A DNA stretch of 19,202 nt from Candidatus Heimdallarchaeota archaeon (GCA_030668825.1 DAOVET010000045.1:1-19202), one strand, 5' to 3'; shown: positions 1-6,864, counted from the first letter of the stretch. A program made the numbers and translations. The notes: generated by a model from the sequence alone, not told the origin.

Positions 1-226
1 TAATTGGTAAAAGAGCCCATAAAATGCTTAAGGACCCTCTAATATTCTTAAAAATTATATTTTCAAAAATGATGAATATTAATAAAAGTGCTAACACCCA
101 GTTTTTGTTTAGAACTAAAAATCCAAATTGAATTGATATGATTACAATTCCAACTAATGGGTGAATTTGAAGTTTATCTGGTTTATACAGAAAACCATCA
201 TAAATTCTCTTTAACATAAAAGACAT
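1..226 (-). CDS. ecfT: ECF transporter transmembrane (T) component, N-terminal part; runs off the window edge
   Basis: Not in the ORF track. Manual translation from ATG at 226: MSFMLKRIYDGFLYKPDKLQIHPLVGIVIISIQFGFLVLNKNWVLALLLIFIIFENIIFKNIRGSLSILWALLPI, open to position 1. Hydrophobic, with an 'IHP' motif before TM1 as in EcfT/CbiQ. The start abuts the ATPase stop (TAGATG), with AGGAGG at 240-235. Confidence 0.75.
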   Translation of the reverse strand, partial: MSFMLKRIYDGFLYKPDKLQIHPLVGIVIISIQFGFLVLNKNWVLALLLIFIIFENIIFKNIRGSLSILWALLPI

Positions 227-1864
227 CTATTCAACCTCCTTAAGCAACAAGTTGAATTCTTTAGGATTAAGAATTCTAGGAAGAGAGATACCTGTTTCTT
301 CTTCTAGCTTTTGAATGTATCTTACAGTTTGATTAGGTATCAAATTTGTATGTTTTTCCAACTCATATAGCACTTTTCTAGGTGGTCCATCTAGACATAT
401 ATCTCCATTTTCTATAACAACCAATCTATCCAAAGATGTAACGATTCTAGGATCATTGGTTGCAAGAATGACAGTATTTCCATTTTCTTTTGCTGTTTCA
501 ACTAATTCAAGTAGAATTCTTCGACCTTTTTTGTCTAAAGCAATTGTAGGTTCATCCAACAAAATAATATCTTCTTGAAAGTAAAATGAGTTTACCAACG
601 CAAAAAGTCTCCTCTCTCCTTCACTCAAATGATAGAGCTTCCTTTTCATCAGCTTTTGCATTTTAAATTTGTTATAAATTTCTATAACTTCCTCATTATC
701 TCTAAGCTGTCTTTCCAAATCTCTTAATGGTGTAGGTCCAACTAGGAATAATTTTGCGTTTTCAGGAACATATATGCAATCTTTTTTTCCCTTTCTGACA
801 TTCTTGATTTTTCTTCCTTTTATCCATACTTCGCCTTTTCTTGCTTTTACAATTCCCAAAATGACTTTCATCAAAGTAGATTTACCACAGCCATTTATCC
901 CCATTAATCCTATAGATTCTCCTTTCTTCAATTGAAGATCTACATCTTTCAATATCCAGTCAGTTTTGTTGTTATATCTGAAATTAACATGATTCAGAGA
1001 AATGGTTGTATCACTTGGTGTTCCGTTTTCTAACTTGAGCAGCTCTGAAATATTCGCATTCCTAATTTTGGATACTATTCTTTTGGAATCTACTTGATCT
1101 TCAAGAGCAAGTACCTTTTCTTTATTTCTGAAATCTATCAAAGATAATTCTGGCGGGTCAATGTCTTCTAACAAACTTATATTATCCAAGGGATGTTCAT
1201 CACTTACTATCTTACCCTTTTTCAAAATAACTAATCTATCAGCTTTTGTCACAATATAGTCAAGACGGTGCTCAAATGCAATCACTAAATGACCATTATC
1301 AGCTAGTTTTCTTAGGAGTTCAACCAGTTTGACTTCTGTTTTTGGATCAATCCTTGCTATAGGTTCATCTAGAATAATGATAGGGGGAGCAAAGGCTAGA
1401 GCAGATGCTAAAAAGACTCTTTGCAATTCACCAGAACTTAACTCAGGAATTACTCTTCTTTGTAGTGAACTTATTTCAAGTTCAGCCAAGACTTGATTAA
1501 GTCTAGATATAATCTCTTCAGAATCAAGAGCAAGATTTTCTAATAGAAAAACAATTTCCTCCTCAACTAATAATGATATTGTAAAATCACTTGGATATTG
1601 AGGAACATATCCTAGTAAGCTAACAAGTTTTTCTCTTGTCAAATCCTTAAAGGAAATCCCATTATAAGAAATTTCACCAGAAATGTCAGCTTCAGTAAAA
1701 TTGGGGATTAAAGTCATCAGAACCTGAGCAAGTGTGCTTTTACCACTCCCGCTAGGTCCTGCAAAAACAACGAATTCTCCTTTAGATGCTTCAAAATTTA
1801 TGCATTTAAGTGCATCCTCATTGCTTGTCATGTACCTGACAGTTAAATCGTTTATTTGAAGCAT
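227..1864 (-). CDS. ECF-type ABC ATPase with two fused nucleotide-binding domains
   Basis: Two Walker A motifs (GPSGSGKS, GINGCGKS), two signature-like motifs (LSSGELQR, LSEGERR) and two Walker B motifs (IILDEP, ILLDEP). Lies between the S and T components. Confidence 0.92.
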   Translation of the reverse strand: MLQINDLTVRYMTSNEDALKCINFEASKGEFVVFAGPSGSGKSTLAQVLMTLIPNFTEADISGEISYNGISFKDLTREKLVSLLGYVPQYPSDFTISLLVEEEIVFLLENLALDSEEIISRLNQVLAELEISSLQRRVIPELSSGELQRVFLASALAFAPPIIILDEPIARIDPKTEVKLVELLRKLADNGHLVIAFEHRLDYIVTKADRLVILKKGKIVSDEHPLDNISLLEDIDPPELSLIDFRNKEKVLALEDQVDSKRIVSKIRNANISELLKLENGTPSDTTISLNHVNFRYNNKTDWILKDVDLQLKKGESIGLMGINGCGKSTLMKVILGIVKARKGEVWIKGRKIKNVRKGKKDCIYVPENAKLFLVGPTPLRDLERQLRDNEEVIEIYNKFKMQKLMKRKLYHLSEGERRLFALVNSFYFQEDIILLDEPTIALDKKGRRILLELVETAKENGNTVILATNDPRIVTSLDRLVVIENGDICLDGPPRKVLYELEKHTNLIPNQTVRYIQKLEEETGISLPRILNPKEFNLLLKEVE

Positions 1865-1876
1865 TATTACACCAAA

Positions 1877-2677
1877 TTAATCTGACTCCGTCTCTGGAAC
1901 CTCTTCCTCAGCAATTGTTATCTTTTCATATCGTTTTAATATTCCAAGTTCACTAAGATAGGATACTATAGGAATAGCAATAGCTGCACTCAGAACAACT
2001 TGAGCAATATTGAATGGAATTTCTGATACAGCAGCTACAAGTAAATATTTTAGAACCACTGTTTCATAGAAGAAGTAACCTAAAACCATCAGTGATCCTC
2101 CTGTTATGCAAGATAAAGCCATTTCCCCTCTTTCTTTTAGGAAGAAGAGAACAAGTCCAATTACAATACTTAGGAATAATGCAATTATTAGAAAAGCGTA
2201 TCCTGGAACAGTAACTGAAAATTCTTTACTACCATAAAAAGCCATTCCAAATACAAAATCTTGATTGACATAAAACGCAGAAAAACCTATTAGAATTCCA
2301 CATAAAACACCCATAAAAAGGTACCTGATCCACTTTTTTAATCGGCGGCTATAGTGGAAAATTACTCCTACAACAAATCCTTCGATCCCTTTGATGATTA
2401 ATGTACCGGGAGCAAAAACCCCATAACCTAAAGCTATATCAGCTAACATCGCTCCCATTCCTCCTGCAATTGCTCCTGTAATTGGTCCTCCGATTAGAGC
2501 AGCTAAATAAACAAATATTTCCCCAATATTAAAGAATCCATTAGAAGTGGGTATAGCTATAAAGAAGATTGACGTAGAAAGAAAAACCAATCCTGTAAAT
2601 GTGACAATTAATGCTAAATTTCTTATTGAATTTACTTCACCAATTAGACTTTTACGTAAACTTACTTCTTGCTCCAT
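1877..2677 (-). CDS. ECF transporter substrate-binding S component (resembles PdxU/HmpT-like vitamin S components; substrate unproven)
   Basis: Motif FNIGEIFVYLAALIGGPITGAIAGGMGAMLADIALGYGVFAPGTLIIKGIEG and C-terminal EIPFNIAQ are typical of this S-component group. First gene of the S-AA'-T operon. Confidence 0.88.
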   Translation of the reverse strand: MEQEVSLRKSLIGEVNSIRNLALIVTFTGLVFLSTSIFFIAIPTSNGFFNIGEIFVYLAALIGGPITGAIAGGMGAMLADIALGYGVFAPGTLIIKGIEGFVVGVIFHYSRRLKKWIRYLFMGVLCGILIGFSAFYVNQDFVFGMAFYGSKEFSVTVPGYAFLIIALFLSIVIGLVLFFLKERGEMALSCITGGSLMVLGYFFYETVVLKYLLVAAVSEIPFNIAQVVLSAAIAIPIVSYLSELGILKRYEKITIAEEEVPETESD

Positions 2678-2699
2678 TCACAACACATCTTTTGGTTTG

Positions 2700-2717
2700 T
2701 TCAAGTTACAACTTGAA
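2700..2717. promoter_or_regulatory. Perfect palindrome TTCAAGTT-AC-AACTTGAA, candidate operator of the ECF operon
   Basis: 8-bp perfect inverted arms (2700-2707, 2710-2717) lying between the TATA-like box (2730-2723) and the S-component ATG (2677). Confidence 0.65.
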
Positions 2718-2722
2718 TAACT

Positions 2723-2737
2723 TATTATAACTTTTTT
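2723..2737 (-). promoter_or_regulatory. Archaeal BRE/TATA promoter of the ECF operon
   Basis: Minus strand reads AAAAAAG-TTATAATA (purine-rich BRE plus TATA-like box), about 45 nt upstream of the ATG. Confidence 0.6.
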
Positions 2738-2762
2738 GGTCTCTATATCGTTACAAGATATT

Positions 2763-4106
2763 TCAGAGAAAATCTATTAAATCTCTCATTTTTTCTAAGG
2801 TTTCAAATCCTTTCTTTGTTACTTTGAACTCCTTAATTTTGGTGTCTTGTTTAGATAATACTATCAATCCTTTCTCTTGAAGTTCATTTAGATGCTGATA
2901 AATAGATTGTTTAGATTTAGCTCTCCCTAAGGATTCCCACAGAGAAATTCCATAAGTCGCTTTACCTTCTGAAATGAGATTCAATATTTCAAATTTAGTT
3001 GTAGAACTTTCAGATAATCCCCAGACAACTTTTCTTCTATCTCTCAATTGAGTAGCATAAATATTGAGTGCATTAAAACCAGATCCAGAAAGAATCGCAA
3101 CACTATGTTGGGGATTTATTTCTTTTTCCTTAATCAACTTATCAGCAGCTGCTAAAACAGAAGCTGAAGCTGGTTCAATAAATAATCCCTCCTTTCTTGA
3201 AAGATTCAAAGCTTCCTCAATCATCTGTTGAGCATCAATTTCTATCTCTTTTCCTTTAGAAAACTTAATTGTCTCTCGTACTTCCTCTAAAAGAAAAGGT
3301 TGCTCTATTTCTAAGGATTCAGCCATGTAAGCACTCTTTGTTTTTTCTAAAGATATTGCATAGATTCTTGGGAGTTCTTCTATCCATCCTGAAGCAAGTG
3401 CATCTTCCAGACCTCTATAGATTGAATATATAAGAGATCCAGATCCTCTAGGTATAATTAATGCATCAAAAAACTCTTTTTGTAAAGCTATTTCTAAGCC
3501 CAAGGTTTTTTGACCTTCGATAGCTAAAATGTTGTTTTCAGGAGTTGCTAAATAGGTATTTGCTTCATTACTAAGCCTTTTTGCTTCAGCAATAGATTCT
3601 TCAACAGAATCGCCCATTTCGATTACTTTACTACCATAAATCTTCATTTGTTCAATTTTAGAAAGTTCTAAATTCTGAGGAATTACATTTTGAGATTTTA
3701 TTCCAGCTTTTGCTGCATAAGCAGATAAACTGATGCTAAAAGAACCTGTACTTGCACCAACTACTTGAGAGCTTTTGTTCTTAACAGCGTCTGAAATTAT
3801 CAAAGAACTAGCTCTATCTCTAAAGGATCCAGTAGGATTTCTGAATTCTAGTTTCAAACTTAATTCTAGAAGATTCCTTAGATTCTTAACCTTTAGAAGT
3901 GGTGTGTTTCCCTCATGTAAGGAAATAGGATTAGAATAATCTGGAAGAAAATCTCTTAATGACCACATAGATGTGAGAGTAATATTAGATTTAGAGGGAC
4001 CTTGAATTGGAGTAATAGATATGAGATTATTACATATAGAACAACGTAATGAATTACCTATACGCAAACTTCCACACTTTTGACAAATGTTCTGTTCTCT
4101 CTGCAT
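2763..4106 (-). CDS. Threonine-synthase-like (PLP fold type II) protein with N-terminal zinc ribbon, degenerate active site and C-terminal PadR/ArsR-like winged-helix domain; putative transcription regulator
   Basis: CQKC..CSIC ribbon. ThrC-like motifs SLHEGNTPL, KLEFRNPTGSFRDR, EGQKT and EGLFIEPASA. C-terminal FEILNLISEGKATYGISLWESL..SKQSIYQHLNELQEKGLI..FKVTKKG is a wHTH pattern. Confidence 0.85.
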   Translation of the reverse strand: MQREQNICQKCGSLRIGNSLRCSICNNLISITPIQGPSKSNITLTSMWSLRDFLPDYSNPISLHEGNTPLLKVKNLRNLLELSLKLEFRNPTGSFRDRASSLIISDAVKNKSSQVVGASTGSFSISLSAYAAKAGIKSQNVIPQNLELSKIEQMKIYGSKVIEMGDSVEESIAEAKRLSNEANTYLATPENNILAIEGQKTLGLEIALQKEFFDALIIPRGSGSLIYSIYRGLEDALASGWIEELPRIYAISLEKTKSAYMAESLEIEQPFLLEEVRETIKFSKGKEIEIDAQQMIEEALNLSRKEGLFIEPASASVLAAADKLIKEKEINPQHSVAILSGSGFNALNIYATQLRDRRKVVWGLSESSTTKFEILNLISEGKATYGISLWESLGRAKSKQSIYQHLNELQEKGLIVLSKQDTKIKEFKVTKKGFETLEKMRDLIDFL

Positions 4107-4128
4107 CTAAAAATACTAGGTAAAAATC

Positions 4129-4138
4129 TATTATAACT
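4129..4138 (-). promoter_or_regulatory. TATA-like box of the ThrC-like regulator gene (probably leaderless transcript)
   Basis: Minus strand AGTTATAATA ends 22 nt before the ATG at 4106. No SD motif is evident. The same 10-mer occurs at 2732-2723. Confidence 0.5.
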
Positions 4139-4154
4139 CTATGGTATATGCTCT

Positions 4155-4349
4155 TCAGACAATCCCTGAAGGTTCTTCATCTTTGTCTATTAATATCTCG
4201 CATGAGCATAGATCATCAAAAATTGATTCAATTTGAAGAGATAAAGGATCCTCAAAATCTAAAAAAAAGTTCATGTCTTTCTTTTCTAAGCTGTTGAATA
4301 ACTGTATGAGAATAGCTCTTTCTTGCTTTGAATTCACTACAATGTGCAT
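4155..4349 (-). CDS. Small acidic hypothetical protein (64 aa)
   Basis: ATG-start ORF filling an otherwise empty intergenic gap. Plausible composition, no recognisable motif. Confidence 0.45.
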   Translation of the reverse strand: MHIVVNSKQERAILIQLFNSLEKKDMNFFLDFEDPLSLQIESIFDDLCSCEILIDKDEEPSGIV

Positions 4350-4473: not shown

Positions 4474-4920
4474 ATGATTCAAGCTGTTTACATCATCTCA
4501 AGAACGGGTGTTCCTCTATATTTTATGGAAAGGATACCAGAAGAAGATGATGTAACTAAAATTACTTTATTTTCTGGAGTAATTTCTGCAATACGAGCAG
4601 CTTTGCTTGAAATAGATGCTGGGGATGCAAATTACTTTACAACTCAAACCCATGAAGTCTATATAGAAGCTACCACCGATTTTGCTGTAGCTCTTGTAAA
4701 AGATATAAATGATAAATTTGAGTCAGAAGCAATTGATGCAATGATTGCAGAAGTGATAACACAGATTACTTTTAATTTTGAAGAACTTCCAGAAGCAGGG
4801 ATACTAAATGCAGAGGAAGAAGAAAAGATGACTAATATTATTGATGATCTCATGATAAAATGGGATGAATCAGTTAAAGATAGCTCAGCTCTAAAGAAAA
4901 TAAAAGAATCATTTTGGTGA
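4474..4920 (+). CDS. Stand-alone longin-like domain protein (Asgard-type eukaryotic signature protein)
   Basis: N-terminal beta-hairpin MIQAVYIISRTGVPLY, then helix LFSGVISAI, three short strands and C-terminal helices, matching the longin pattern. Pattern recognition only. Confidence 0.7.
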   Translation: MIQAVYIISRTGVPLYFMERIPEEDDVTKITLFSGVISAIRAALLEIDAGDANYFTTQTHEVYIEATTDFAVALVKDINDKFESEAIDAMIAEVITQITFNFEELPEAGILNAEEEEKMTNIIDDLMIKWDESVKDSSALKKIKESFW

Positions 4921-5151: not shown

Positions 5152-6864
5152 ATGCCAGAAAAGATATGGAGCTATTGTGAAGGAATTCCTGATAAGATAG
5201 AAGTACCACTAACCAGCGTAGTAGAAATGTTTTGGAAAACAGCTGAAAAGTTTCCTAATAGAGATCTAACAGAATTTAAGGGAAAATATAAGAAATATTC
5301 AGAGATGGAAGAAGAAGTGAATAGGTTCGCAAATTCTCTTAAAGATTTAGGAGTTGAAAAAGGAGACAGAGTAGCTTGTTTGATGCCAAATTGCCCACAA
5401 TATATTGTGGTATTTTTCGCAACAAATGCATTAGGGGCTATATTTACAGCCATAAGCTCCCTGTATACTCAAAAGGAAATAAGATATCAATTACAAGATA
5501 GTGAAGCAAAAGTTATAGTTACACTTGATCTTTTTCTAGATAAAATAAGAGAAGTACAAGATGATACCAAACTTGAGCATGTCATAGTATCTTCAGTAGG
5601 AGATGAGTTGCCAGGAATTACAGCTTTTTTGTATAAGAATGTAATTGCAAGGAAAAATCCTAAAGTAATAAATGAACTGGTTTACAAAGATCTTCTTAAG
5701 AAAGGAGAAAATAAGAGAATAGAAACAAAAATTAATGTGAAAGAAGATGTAGCATTGCTCCAATATACCGGAGGAACTACAGGAATCATGAAGGGTGCCA
5801 TGCTCACAAATTACAATCTTATGTCTCAAGCTACCATTTTACCTTATTGGGACTTATGGTTACCATCCCGACCTGAAGGTCAGTATAGAATATCTGGTTG
5901 TCTTCCCATGTCCCATATCTTTGGATTTTCTACTTCTTTTCTCTGGACCATAGCAGTTGGAGGATTACTTTATCTCATTCCCGATCCAAGGCAACTTGAG
6001 GAAGTTATGCAGAGCGTATCTAAGCACAAGATTCATTTCATGTTTGCAGTTCCTATTCTTTATCAAAAAATAGCTGAACATCCTAATATAGCCAAATATG
6101 ACCTTTCGTCCCTTTACATGTGTATTTCTGGTGGTGAAGGTCTTCCACAATCAACTTGTGAGAAGTTTGAAGAAGCTTGTAAAGGATTATTAATTGAAGG
6201 ATATGGACTTAGTGAAAGTTCGCCGGTAACTCATGTCAATCCTGGAAATAAGGACCTACGTAAGCTTAATGCTATAGGTATTCCAATTCCTAACACTTTA
6301 GCAATGATTGTTGATCTTGATACCCAAGAAGAAATCAGTGAATATGGTAAGGAAGGAGAACTTTGGATCCGTAGTCCTAGTGTCATGAAAGGATACTGGA
6401 ACAACAAAGAAGCTTCAGATGCAGTTCTGGTTAAGGGTTGGTTAAGAACTGGCGACATTGCTACGATGGATGAAAAAGGTTTCTTCTCAGTTGTAGACAG
6501 AGCAAAAGATATGATTATCGTGTCTGGTTACAAAGTTTGGCCTAGTGATGTTGAAGAAGTTCTTTATGCACATCCCGATATCAATATGGCTGGAGTCGTT
6601 CAAGTCAAAGATGGAAATACTGAGAAAGTTAAAGCATTTCTAGTTGCTGAACCAGGATCTAAAGAATTATCTCGTGATGAAATCAAAGCTTACAGCGAAG
6701 ATAAATTAGCCCCTTACAAGATACCAACAATTATTGAGTATAAGGAAGATTTACCAAGAACTGCTGTTGGAAAAGTCTCCCGAAAAGATTTACGACAAAG
6801 TGATGCAGCTGCTAGAAGTACTACTAAAGCTCCTGTTGTTCAAAAAGAAGTCATTAAGAAATAG
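5152..6864 (+). CDS. fadD: Long-chain-fatty-acid--CoA ligase (ANL adenylate-forming family)
   Basis: AMP-binding motif LQYTGGTTGIMKG, plus EGYGLSESSP, GWLRTGDIA, DRAKDMIIVSGYKVWP and LPRTAVGKV. Confidence 0.92.
   Translation: MPEKIWSYCEGIPDKIEVPLTSVVEMFWKTAEKFPNRDLTEFKGKYKKYSEMEEEVNRFANSLKDLGVEKGDRVACLMPNCPQYIVVFFATNALGAIFTAISSLYTQKEIRYQLQDSEAKVIVTLDLFLDKIREVQDDTKLEHVIVSSVGDELPGITAFLYKNVIARKNPKVINELVYKDLLKKGENKRIETKINVKEDVALLQYTGGTTGIMKGAMLTNYNLMSQATILPYWDLWLPSRPEGQYRISGCLPMSHIFGFSTSFLWTIAVGGLLYLIPDPRQLEEVMQSVSKHKIHFMFAVPILYQKIAEHPNIAKYDLSSLYMCISGGEGLPQSTCEKFEEACKGLLIEGYGLSESSPVTHVNPGNKDLRKLNAIGIPIPNTLAMIVDLDTQEEISEYGKEGELWIRSPSVMKGYWNNKEASDAVLVKGWLRTGDIATMDEKGFFSVVDRAKDMIIVSGYKVWPSDVEEVLYAHPDINMAGVVQVKDGNTEKVKAFLVAEPGSKELSRDEIKAYSEDKLAPYKIPTIIEYKEDLPRTAVGKVSRKDLRQSDAAARSTTKAPVVQKEVIKK

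Follow-up and report, generated by a model that had tools for sequence, protein, structure and literature searches.

A threonine synthase-derived candidate regulator of vitamin B6 uptake and synthesis genes in Asgard and other archaea

Introduction

Among archaeal vitamin regulators derived from enzymes, ThiR combines ThiN with a helix-turn-helix (HTH) domain. RbkR joins riboflavin kinase to an HTH domain, as described in the accessible part of PMC8305020, and the accessible part of PMC5320631 gives the regulons of the MocR/PdxR regulators of Bacteria as comprising pdxST, pdxK and the transporter gene pdxU, and reports that no MocR regulators occur in Archaea. Here we analyse a stretch of 19,202 nucleotides (nt) from Candidatus Heimdallarchaeota archaeon (GCA_030668825.1 DAOVET010000045.1:1-19202), hereafter the window, in which a protein resembling threonine synthase (ThrC) and ending in a winged helix is encoded directly upstream of an energy-coupling factor (ECF) importer operon. 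We consider it likely that this protein, hereafter the regulator, is a repressor responsive to pyridoxal 5'-phosphate (PLP) that derives from archaeal threonine synthase and acts through a palindrome on vitamin B6 uptake and synthesis genes.

The accessible text of PMC9997740 leaves regulators and transporters aside, and that of a 2025 preprint on Asgard pdxST promoters (10.1101/2025.11.07.685452) calls regulation of the pathway poorly characterized and makes no mention of this protein. The original prediction for this locus knew of no characterized example, and our literature search, which had most subscription journals outside its reach, likewise found no description of this regulator or of any archaeal B6 regulator.

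Results

Conservation of the regulator, its candidate operator and the S-component gene

The relevant genes of the window all lie on the minus strand, in the transcription order 64-amino acid open reading frame (ORF), regulator, 85-nt spacer, S component, fused AA' ATPase and T component. The regulator gene (2763-4106, minus strand) encodes a candidate B6-responsive transcription factor of 447 amino acids composed of a zinc ribbon, a ThrC-like PLP domain, a linker and a winged helix, and the S gene (1877-2677, minus strand) encodes a 266-amino acid ECF S component, a candidate B6-vitamer-binding subunit. Between them lies the candidate operator, the perfect 8-2-8 palindrome TTCAAGTTACAACTTGAA (TTCAAGTT-AC-AACTTGAA; 2700-2717), with its start 40 nt from the ATG of the S gene. 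Read along the coding strand, a gap of 4 nt separates it from the TATA-like sequence TTATAATAA (2722-2730, minus strand) on its upstream side, itself preceded by CCAAAAAAG (2731-2739, minus strand), which resembles a transcription factor B recognition element. These two sequences are the presumed promoter elements of the ECF operon, and the string 'aaaaaaGTTATAA' also precedes the operators of relatives. The original prediction had described both a ThrC-fold protein with a winged helix and without the PLP lysine upstream of the operon, and a palindrome just downstream of its TATA box; both descriptions were borne out, the protein having Arg96 at the lysine position and a C-terminal PadR-like winged helix.

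Homologues alike in length and in their pair of domains are numerous. A regulator homologue at E <= 1e-40 was identified in 75 of the 201 sampled genomes of the phylum, a figure that a second search with a divergent member as query revealed to be an underestimate. We assembled 61 Asgard loci (the window and 60 homologues, with 6 kb fetched on either side), and in 44 of them an S-component gene lay within 6 kb of the regulator, in one of three arrangements: on the same strand with S downstream, convergent, or divergent. Judged by coordinates, no fewer than 24 additional genomes have an S gene abutted by a regulator-like ORF some 500 amino acids long. A scan of species-representative genomes returned 578 relatives, among them records of Heimdall-, Thor- and Loki-type lineages (with Promethearchaeum syntrophicum MK-D1 and Lokiarchaeum ossiferum) and of Bathyarchaeia, Desulfurococcales, Staphylothermus, Methanomethylicia, Thermococcus and Methanomicrobia. 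Among loci L171-L216, mostly from Thermoproteota (Bathyarchaeia, Desulfurococcales, Staphylothermus and others), an S gene was found within 4 kb of the regulator in 22 of 46. The proposed synteny is therefore conserved in and beyond Asgard archaea, with counts that overstate independence because the genomes are mutually related. A dedicated AA'T module accompanies S in some lineages only, most Asgard S orthologues being solitary.

Taken alone, the palindrome is not beyond chance: the window contains one perfect 8-2-8 palindrome, whilst 200 mononucleotide shuffles contain a mean of 0.665 and 49.5 % of them have at least one, so that its significance comes from conservation only. Upstream of S the operator reads ATTCAAGTTGTAACTTGAAT or TACAAGTTATAACTTGAA in the family of the window, ATATAAGTTnnAACTTATAT, often in tandem, in family f13 and ATATAGGTTTnTTCCTATAT in f23. 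We built an 18-nt position weight matrix (PWM) from the palindromes upstream of S (core AAGTT-N2-AACTT) and set 12 bits as the site threshold; the window palindrome scored 21.2 and the next best window site 8.2. Sites of at least 12 bits were present upstream of 41 of the 44 linked S genes, 21 of which had two or more, a result that agrees with the expected conservation of the palindrome in orthologous promoters but is partly circular, since the matrix was trained on S sites, leaving the background and the pdxS promoters as the only independent tests. In the background, five of 614 other upstream regions of the same loci reached the threshold; two of these matches represent one site in a pdxS promoter region (counted for pdxS and for its divergent neighbour), two represent one site in the divergent region of the regulator (L090), and one is unexplained. 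In three genomes (G003, G026 and G074) the regulator gene is 22 kb to over 200 kb away from S, which even so has the motif in two tandem copies, and the motif thus tracks the S gene and not the regulator gene.

Operators outside Asgard archaea retain the core AGTT-N2-AACT, as in Desulfurococcales (ATAAAGTTnAAACTTTAT) and Bathyarchaeia (TAGTTnnAACTA), and the core is kept in step with an invariant YQHL motif of the winged helix. Three residues before YQHL, Gln tends to occur with CAAGTT or AAAGTT and Ala, Pro or Ser with TAAGTT or TAGTT, a tendency that has exceptions (f26) and is wholly confounded by phylogeny. The conserved association of regulator, operator and target was computed directly, and that the three are linked is very strongly favoured by these data.

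Scans of the window's own genome revealed no further regulon members. The exact pattern given in the original prediction matched three places with up to two mismatches, against six for a reversed-pattern control, and the degenerate pattern YAAGTTNNAACTTR matched only the window site and one place inside a 604-amino acid ORF on contig C109. In G003, G026, G074 and G193, all five places matching YAAGTTNNAACTTR were rejected as operators, being inside ORFs or at no gene start; the actual operators of these genomes diverge from the strict pattern. Across five genomes of the family, YAAGTTNNAACTTR occurs one to two times per genome versus four to seven for the reversed control, which may point to avoidance of the operator sequence at other places in them.

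The same sites could be those of a B6-responsive activator that PLP switches off, as with bacterial PdxR at pdxST, but in the window and its close relatives the operator follows the TATA-like box and is no more than 40 nt before the ATG, a position at which a bound archaeal factor would be expected to hinder polymerase recruitment. We consider such an activator unlikely, even though the presence of two or more sites in 21 of 44 promoters is an arrangement also known from activators. In its favour, a number of PdxR proteins of Bacteria act as activators of pdxST, and PLP opposes this action (in part after a work cited in PMC9997740).

Evidence for vitamin B6 as the regulated pathway

The B6 identity of the targets was computed directly, and B6 is strongly favoured as the pathway by four lines of evidence that are independent of one another. 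PdxS (PF01680) was found in 32 of the 201 genomes. Where the regulator has no adjacent S gene, pdxS or pdxST adjoins it in five genomes from four families: two of the same genus as the window (G097 and G172), one from f6 with a divergent pair (G187), one from f12 with what is apparently one operon (G007) and one from f19 with a divergent pair (G041). Sites of at least 12 bits were found at pdxS in five of the 14 pdxS-carrying genomes first scored as regulator-positive (G172, G097, G187, G151 and G076), with weaker candidates in the pdxS promoters of G193 and G038. Nine pdxS promoters from genomes without a regulator at E <= 1e-40 served as controls, and only that of G041 scored (14.7); a looser search of this genome revealed the divergent regulator next to pdxS. 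None of the remaining eight control promoters reached 12 (0/8), four of these genomes having been rechecked for a regulator at E <= 1e-5. In G097, G172 and G187 the motif occurs at the pdxS gene beside the regulator in genomes with no S homologue found. The original prediction had proposed either a B6 vitamer or an amino acid as ligand, and the occurrence of both regulator and motif at pdxS or pdxST where a genome lacks S favours the former. Its suggestion to look for the palindrome near pdxS or pdxT in the window's own genome came to nothing, as a genome profile search gave no PdxS or PdxT match there.

Uptake and synthesis genes also stand in a complementary relation to each other. S homologues (E <= 1e-10) were identified in 8 of the 32 pdxS-positive genomes versus 152 of the 169 pdxS-negative genomes, a contrast that is indicative and not a statistical test because the genomes are related and often incomplete, and within the genus of the window none of the four pdxS-positive genomes gave an S homologue. 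In G048 (contig C242, locus L110), the end of the S gene encoding the C-terminus runs directly into a same-strand pdxS gene, and one operator (19.6 bits) lies upstream of S, an apparent joint uptake and synthesis operon.

The S component is a member of a recognized ECF S family, matching PF07155 at E 2.9e-25 and 89.7 bits (cut-off 26.7). According to the accessible part of PMC9997740, PF07155/COG4720 includes the B6 transporters PdxU and PdxU2/HmpT. The only significant sequence match of S in the PDB was 4hzu_S (E 2.1e-8), identified in the accessible part of PMC4860826 as HmpT/PdxU2 and shown to carry pyridoxamine, and the proposed resemblance to transporters of the PdxU/HmpT type therefore held. 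The same text names Glu41, Gln43 and His84 as conserved ligand residues of HmpT; in our alignment Glu41 pairs with Glu and His84 with Lys, and chain position 43 is Gly, so the published numbering may be offset.

Sensor domain and winged helix of the regulator

The domain architecture of the regulator was likewise computed directly. Its N-terminal Cys4 zinc-ribbon motif (C8, C11, C22 and C25; 4032-4085, minus strand) is common to archaeal ThrC; the cysteines were aligned in 49-50 of 58 regulators, the remaining 8-9 rows being gapped there, and in 18 of 18 ThrC sequences. The PALP (ThrC-like) sensor domain spans residues 61-341 (3084-3926, minus strand; PF00291, E 6.3e-56), and a linker of low confidence (residues 356-365; 3012-3041, minus strand; predicted local distance difference test score (pLDDT) below 50) connects the protein body to the winged HTH at residues 366-447 (2766-3011, minus strand), in which the YQHL motif occupies residues 403-406 (2889-2900, minus strand). 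An AlphaFold2 model built on 50 homologues (mean pLDDT 87.2) comprised a ThrC-like body, a disordered linker at 356-365 and a winged helix at 366-446 with the topology H-H-H-strand-strand-H (helices 366-379, 386-392 and 399-411, strands 415-419 and 426-429, helix 431-446). Foldseek returned the threonine synthases 6nmx, 2zsj and 1uin as top PDB matches of the model, with a target-normalized template modelling score of about 0.80.

Within the winged helix, residues 374-438 matched PadR (PF03551) at E 7.5e-5 and 23.1 bits, below the 27-bit cut-off, and a C-terminal HTH_45 match was found at E 2.3e-4; many regulator homologues carry a precomputed PF03551 match. YQHL was invariant in 15 diverse members. 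The protein fell below both curated ThrC equivalog cut-offs: NF004170 ('threonine synthase') matched over its full length (profile positions 4-441 of 442, covering the C-terminal extension) at 284.7 bits versus a cut-off of 421, and TIGR00260 matched at 96.8 bits versus 167.1. A separate ThrC-length paralogue is encoded on contig C102 of the same genome, in a 408-amino acid frame that matches profile positions 2-358 and has no C-terminal extension. Public records label regulator homologues as 'pyridoxal-phosphate dependent enzyme' or 'threonine synthase', names that are probably misannotations.

Where the lysine that forms the PLP Schiff base would stand, the window protein has Arg96 (AGA codon, 3819-3821, minus strand; motif NPTGSFRDR), and the 20 nearest true ThrC sequences (P0101-P0120) have Lys in 20 of 20. 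Among 58 aligned full-length regulators, this position is occupied by Arg in 31 (families f1, f26, f9, f22, f24, f18, f11 and f7), Lys in 18 (f13 only), Ile in six (f10, f20 and f25), Leu in one (f12) and Asn or Thr in two (f23). The catalytic lysine is thus gone in 40 of the 58 through five replacements (R, I, L, N and T); its absence, as originally predicted, is accurate for the window protein but does not extend to the whole family. All 43 non-Asgard members included in our phylogeny have Arg, having been retrieved by a scan with an Arg-containing pattern. The Gly-rich loop GSGSL (residues 221-225; 3432-3446, minus strand) aligns with the GNAGN loop of ThrC, which we take to bind the PLP phosphate. 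Gly221 is kept in all 58 regulators, alignment A2 has no variation at G221 or G223, and the EPASA motif is mostly kept throughout the 58. The STGNT loop of ThrC, presumably substrate-binding, is replaced by STGSF in the window protein, such that in both loops the glycines are retained and Asn and Thr are replaced.

Five replacements of the catalytic residue, together with retention of the loop assumed to face the PLP phosphate, fit a domain retained for binding and not for catalysis. PLP is somewhat favoured as the direct ligand; in most lineages its binding would be non-covalent, and in f13 a Schiff base may form. In an unrooted FastTree phylogeny of 101 regulators and 18 ThrC sequences, the Lys-type regulators formed one clade (support 100) among Arg-type neighbours, and the ThrC rows fell on long branches inside the regulator tree next to the Ile/Leu/Asn/Thr clade. 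The tree fits more than one rooting, and more than one count of fusion events and sequence of lysine losses.

The sensor could instead recognize an amino acid or O-phosphohomoserine, as substrate or product of ThrC, with the ECF system importing an amino acid-related compound. The domain is nearest to threonine synthase and most members lack the lysine for covalent PLP binding, and in three f11 loci (L057, L060 and L062) a gene of the glycerate kinase type (DUF4147 + MOFRL) follows the regulator. These features fit an amino acid sensor, but the recurrent targets are pdxS or pdxST and an S component of the PdxU/HmpT family and not amino acid genes, the distribution of S runs counter to that of PdxS, the 61 neighbourhoods contain no recurrent threonine, serine or methionine gene, and the loop aligned with the ThrC STGNT is itself altered. 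An amino acid ligand is accordingly rather improbable. The gene encoding DUF4147 + MOFRL also adjoins the regulator in L052, and a small MarR-like gene lies beyond it in three of these four loci.

A bifunctional enzyme-regulator like RbkR that has retained PLP-dependent catalysis would account for the lysine kept in the 18 f13 proteins; it is very improbable given Arg96 in the window protein, the 40 of 58 regulators in which five replacements make catalysis look dispensable, and the ThrC-length paralogue elsewhere in the genome. It is equally hard to credit that the palindrome serves another factor, with the ThrC-like protein linked in a non-regulatory way, for example as a cytoplasmic trap for an imported vitamer: the sub-threshold PadR match and a regulator-palindrome pairing drawn from sequence comparison would permit this, but the motif stands at the pdxS adjoining the regulator in three genomes with no S homologue found (G097, G172 and G187), control pdxS promoters from genomes with no regulator found at E <= 1e-40, four of them rechecked at E <= 1e-5, gave 0/8, and a confidently predicted winged helix with invariant YQHL is matched by an equally invariant operator core.

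The importer operon and neighbouring genes

The remainder of the ECF operon comprises a fused A-A' ATPase of 545 amino acids (227-1864, minus strand) and a T component. The former contains two ABC_tran (PF00005) stretches (E 1.7e-52) and matched TIGR04520 at 272.6 bits, under the 315-bit equivalog cut-off of NCBIfam. Of the T component only the N-terminal 75 amino acids are encoded (2-226, minus strand), the gene running past the contig end, and this fragment had no Pfam match; the full-length T orthologue in L045 (241 amino acids) gave a weak match to CbiQ (PF02361; E 6.9e-5, 23 bits versus a 25-bit cut-off). The original description of a complete S-AA'-T importer is consequently accurate for S and AA', but completeness is not readable from the window because the T gene is cut.

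Directly upstream of the regulator and on the same strand is the 64-amino acid ORF (4155-4349, minus strand), which had no Pfam match, is kept in position at 16 loci (the window and 15 of its family) with 48-98 % identity, and may be co-transcribed with the regulator. Divergent from it is a gene for a 148-amino acid protein (4474-4920, plus strand) with a weak, below cut-off match to Roadblock/LC7 (E 0.0018). In most relatives from the genus of the window (L034, L045, L046, L049, L050 and L093) the spacer between regulator and S measures 0.5-1.8 kb, versus 85 nt in the window. The long spacers contain a small ORF on the opposite strand (104-163 amino acids, no Pfam match) and one to two copies of the inverted repeat CTTTAGAAAACTAAAG; that of the window is the most compact version and has neither.

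In six Bathyarchaeia loci (L173, L174, L177, L180, L198 and L206), the regulator directly follows two same-strand genes encoding proteins of about 445 and 635 amino acids. Those in L173, where they were scanned, are gatD and gatE, and a motif-like site, TTTAAGGTTnAAACTTAAAG, occurs near the start of the first of the two genes in L173 and L174. Genes for NiFe hydrogenase, GINS, helicase, ZIP, GatDE, FttA and MCM were recurrent neighbours that we rejected as regulon members and read as lineage-specific housekeeping synteny. A motif-like site at position 5165 of the Thermococcus locus L211 was also rejected as an operator, no clear gene following it.

Discussion

The observations above suggest the following mechanism for a PLP-responsive repressor. 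With Lys96 replaced by Arg, the PLP-fold domain would no longer catalyse and would serve as a B6 sensor, most likely of PLP, whilst the C-terminal PadR-like winged helix, probably as a dimer, would bind the palindrome core AAGTT-N2-AACTT. The operator lies between TATA box and start codon, directly after the former, and would span the point at which transcription of the S-AA'-T operon is expected to begin. Archaeal repressors bound in this region typically block polymerase recruitment. When B6 is replete, liganded protein on the operator would thus block recruitment of RNA polymerase, and when B6 is scarce the protein would dissociate from the operator, allowing synthesis of the importer. This factor and operator would, in other lineages, govern pdxST, either in place of the importer or in addition to it. 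PLP is proposed as a co-repressor because uptake and synthesis should both drop when it is plentiful, and repression is, in our judgement, fairly likely as the sign of regulation.

Several observations weigh against this interpretation, in addition to the relatedness of the genomes, the training of the matrix on S sites and the sub-threshold PadR match. Three linked S genes (L052, L075 and L090) lack a site of at least 12 bits, as do nine of the 14 promoters of pdxS from genomes initially scored as regulator-positive, and there is no motif site at the S homologues of G007 and G041, which are unlinked. No B6 gene was found near the regulator in Thermococcus, Methanomicrobia and part of Bathyarchaeia, where the neighbours are housekeeping genes. 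The changed loop residues (STGSF for STGNT) indicate an altered pocket, the ligand of which might not be PLP. Lastly, no kinase of the PdxK/ThiD family (PF08543) was detected in the window's own genome, and one exceeded the curated cut-off in just one of 26 family genomes, including two closed ones; the gap may be explained by PLP itself as the import substrate or by an unrecognized kinase.

Should PLP-responsive repression be correct, the gap of an archaeal transcriptional regulator for B6 would be filled, hundreds of genes named 'threonine synthase' or 'PLP-dependent enzyme' would be re-annotated, and a widespread archaeal ECF S component would be assigned a substrate. It would also constitute a second, convergent case of a PLP enzyme turned PLP sensor. 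In its widest form, for which we regard the case as evenly balanced, the proposal is that this is the missing archaeal B6 regulator: an ancient family present in Asgard, Thermoproteota, Thermococci and Methanomicrobia that evolved from threonine synthase on a path separate from that of bacterial PdxR and defines an archaeal B6 regulon and transporter, with most Asgard archaea unable to make PLP, dependent on partners and perhaps importing the phosphorylated cofactor. The detection of PdxS in only 32 of 201 genomes suggests the inability to make PLP, and the lack of a detected PdxK-type kinase suggests that the phosphorylated cofactor itself may be imported. The family would also point towards B6 dependence as a general Asgard trait with a bearing on syntrophy and cultivation. 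Carriers that are cultured or have closed genomes include Promethearchaeum syntrophicum MK-D1 and Lokiarchaeum ossiferum, and there are relatives in Thermococcus and Staphylothermus.

In comparison with described systems, the family, fold, operator and regulon appear new, whilst the principle of an enzyme-derived vitamin sensor joined to an HTH domain is known from RbkR, ThiR and PdxR. The regulator shares with ThrC (TIGR00260, NF004170/PRK05638) its fold, the N-terminal zinc ribbon and the NPTGSF-DR and EPASA motifs, but differs in the Arg that replaces the catalytic lysine, in STGSF and GSGSL, in its sub-cut-off scores and in the added winged helix. The S component belongs to the same Pfam family (PF07155/COG4720) as PdxU and PdxU2 (HmpT, 4HZU), although the similarity to HmpT is distant, S has 266 amino acids versus 166, and its gene is accompanied by those of a dedicated module of fused AA' and T. 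The design resembles that of RbkR and ThiR, in which a domain from a biosynthetic enzyme, joined to a DNA-binding one, governs synthesis or uptake genes of the vitamin concerned; the enzyme fold, DNA-binding domain, vitamin and operator all differ, and RbkR keeps its activity whereas the regulator here is without the catalytic lysine. With the MocR/PdxR regulators of Bacteria it shares a sensor derived from a PLP enzyme, a winged helix and the same logic of B6 homeostasis. Theirs is an N-terminal GntR-type domain with a fold-type I, aminotransferase-like sensor, in contrast to the fold-type II, ThrC-like sensor and C-terminal PadR-like winged helix described here, in which the lysine is often replaced, and the two are convergent, not homologous, solutions.

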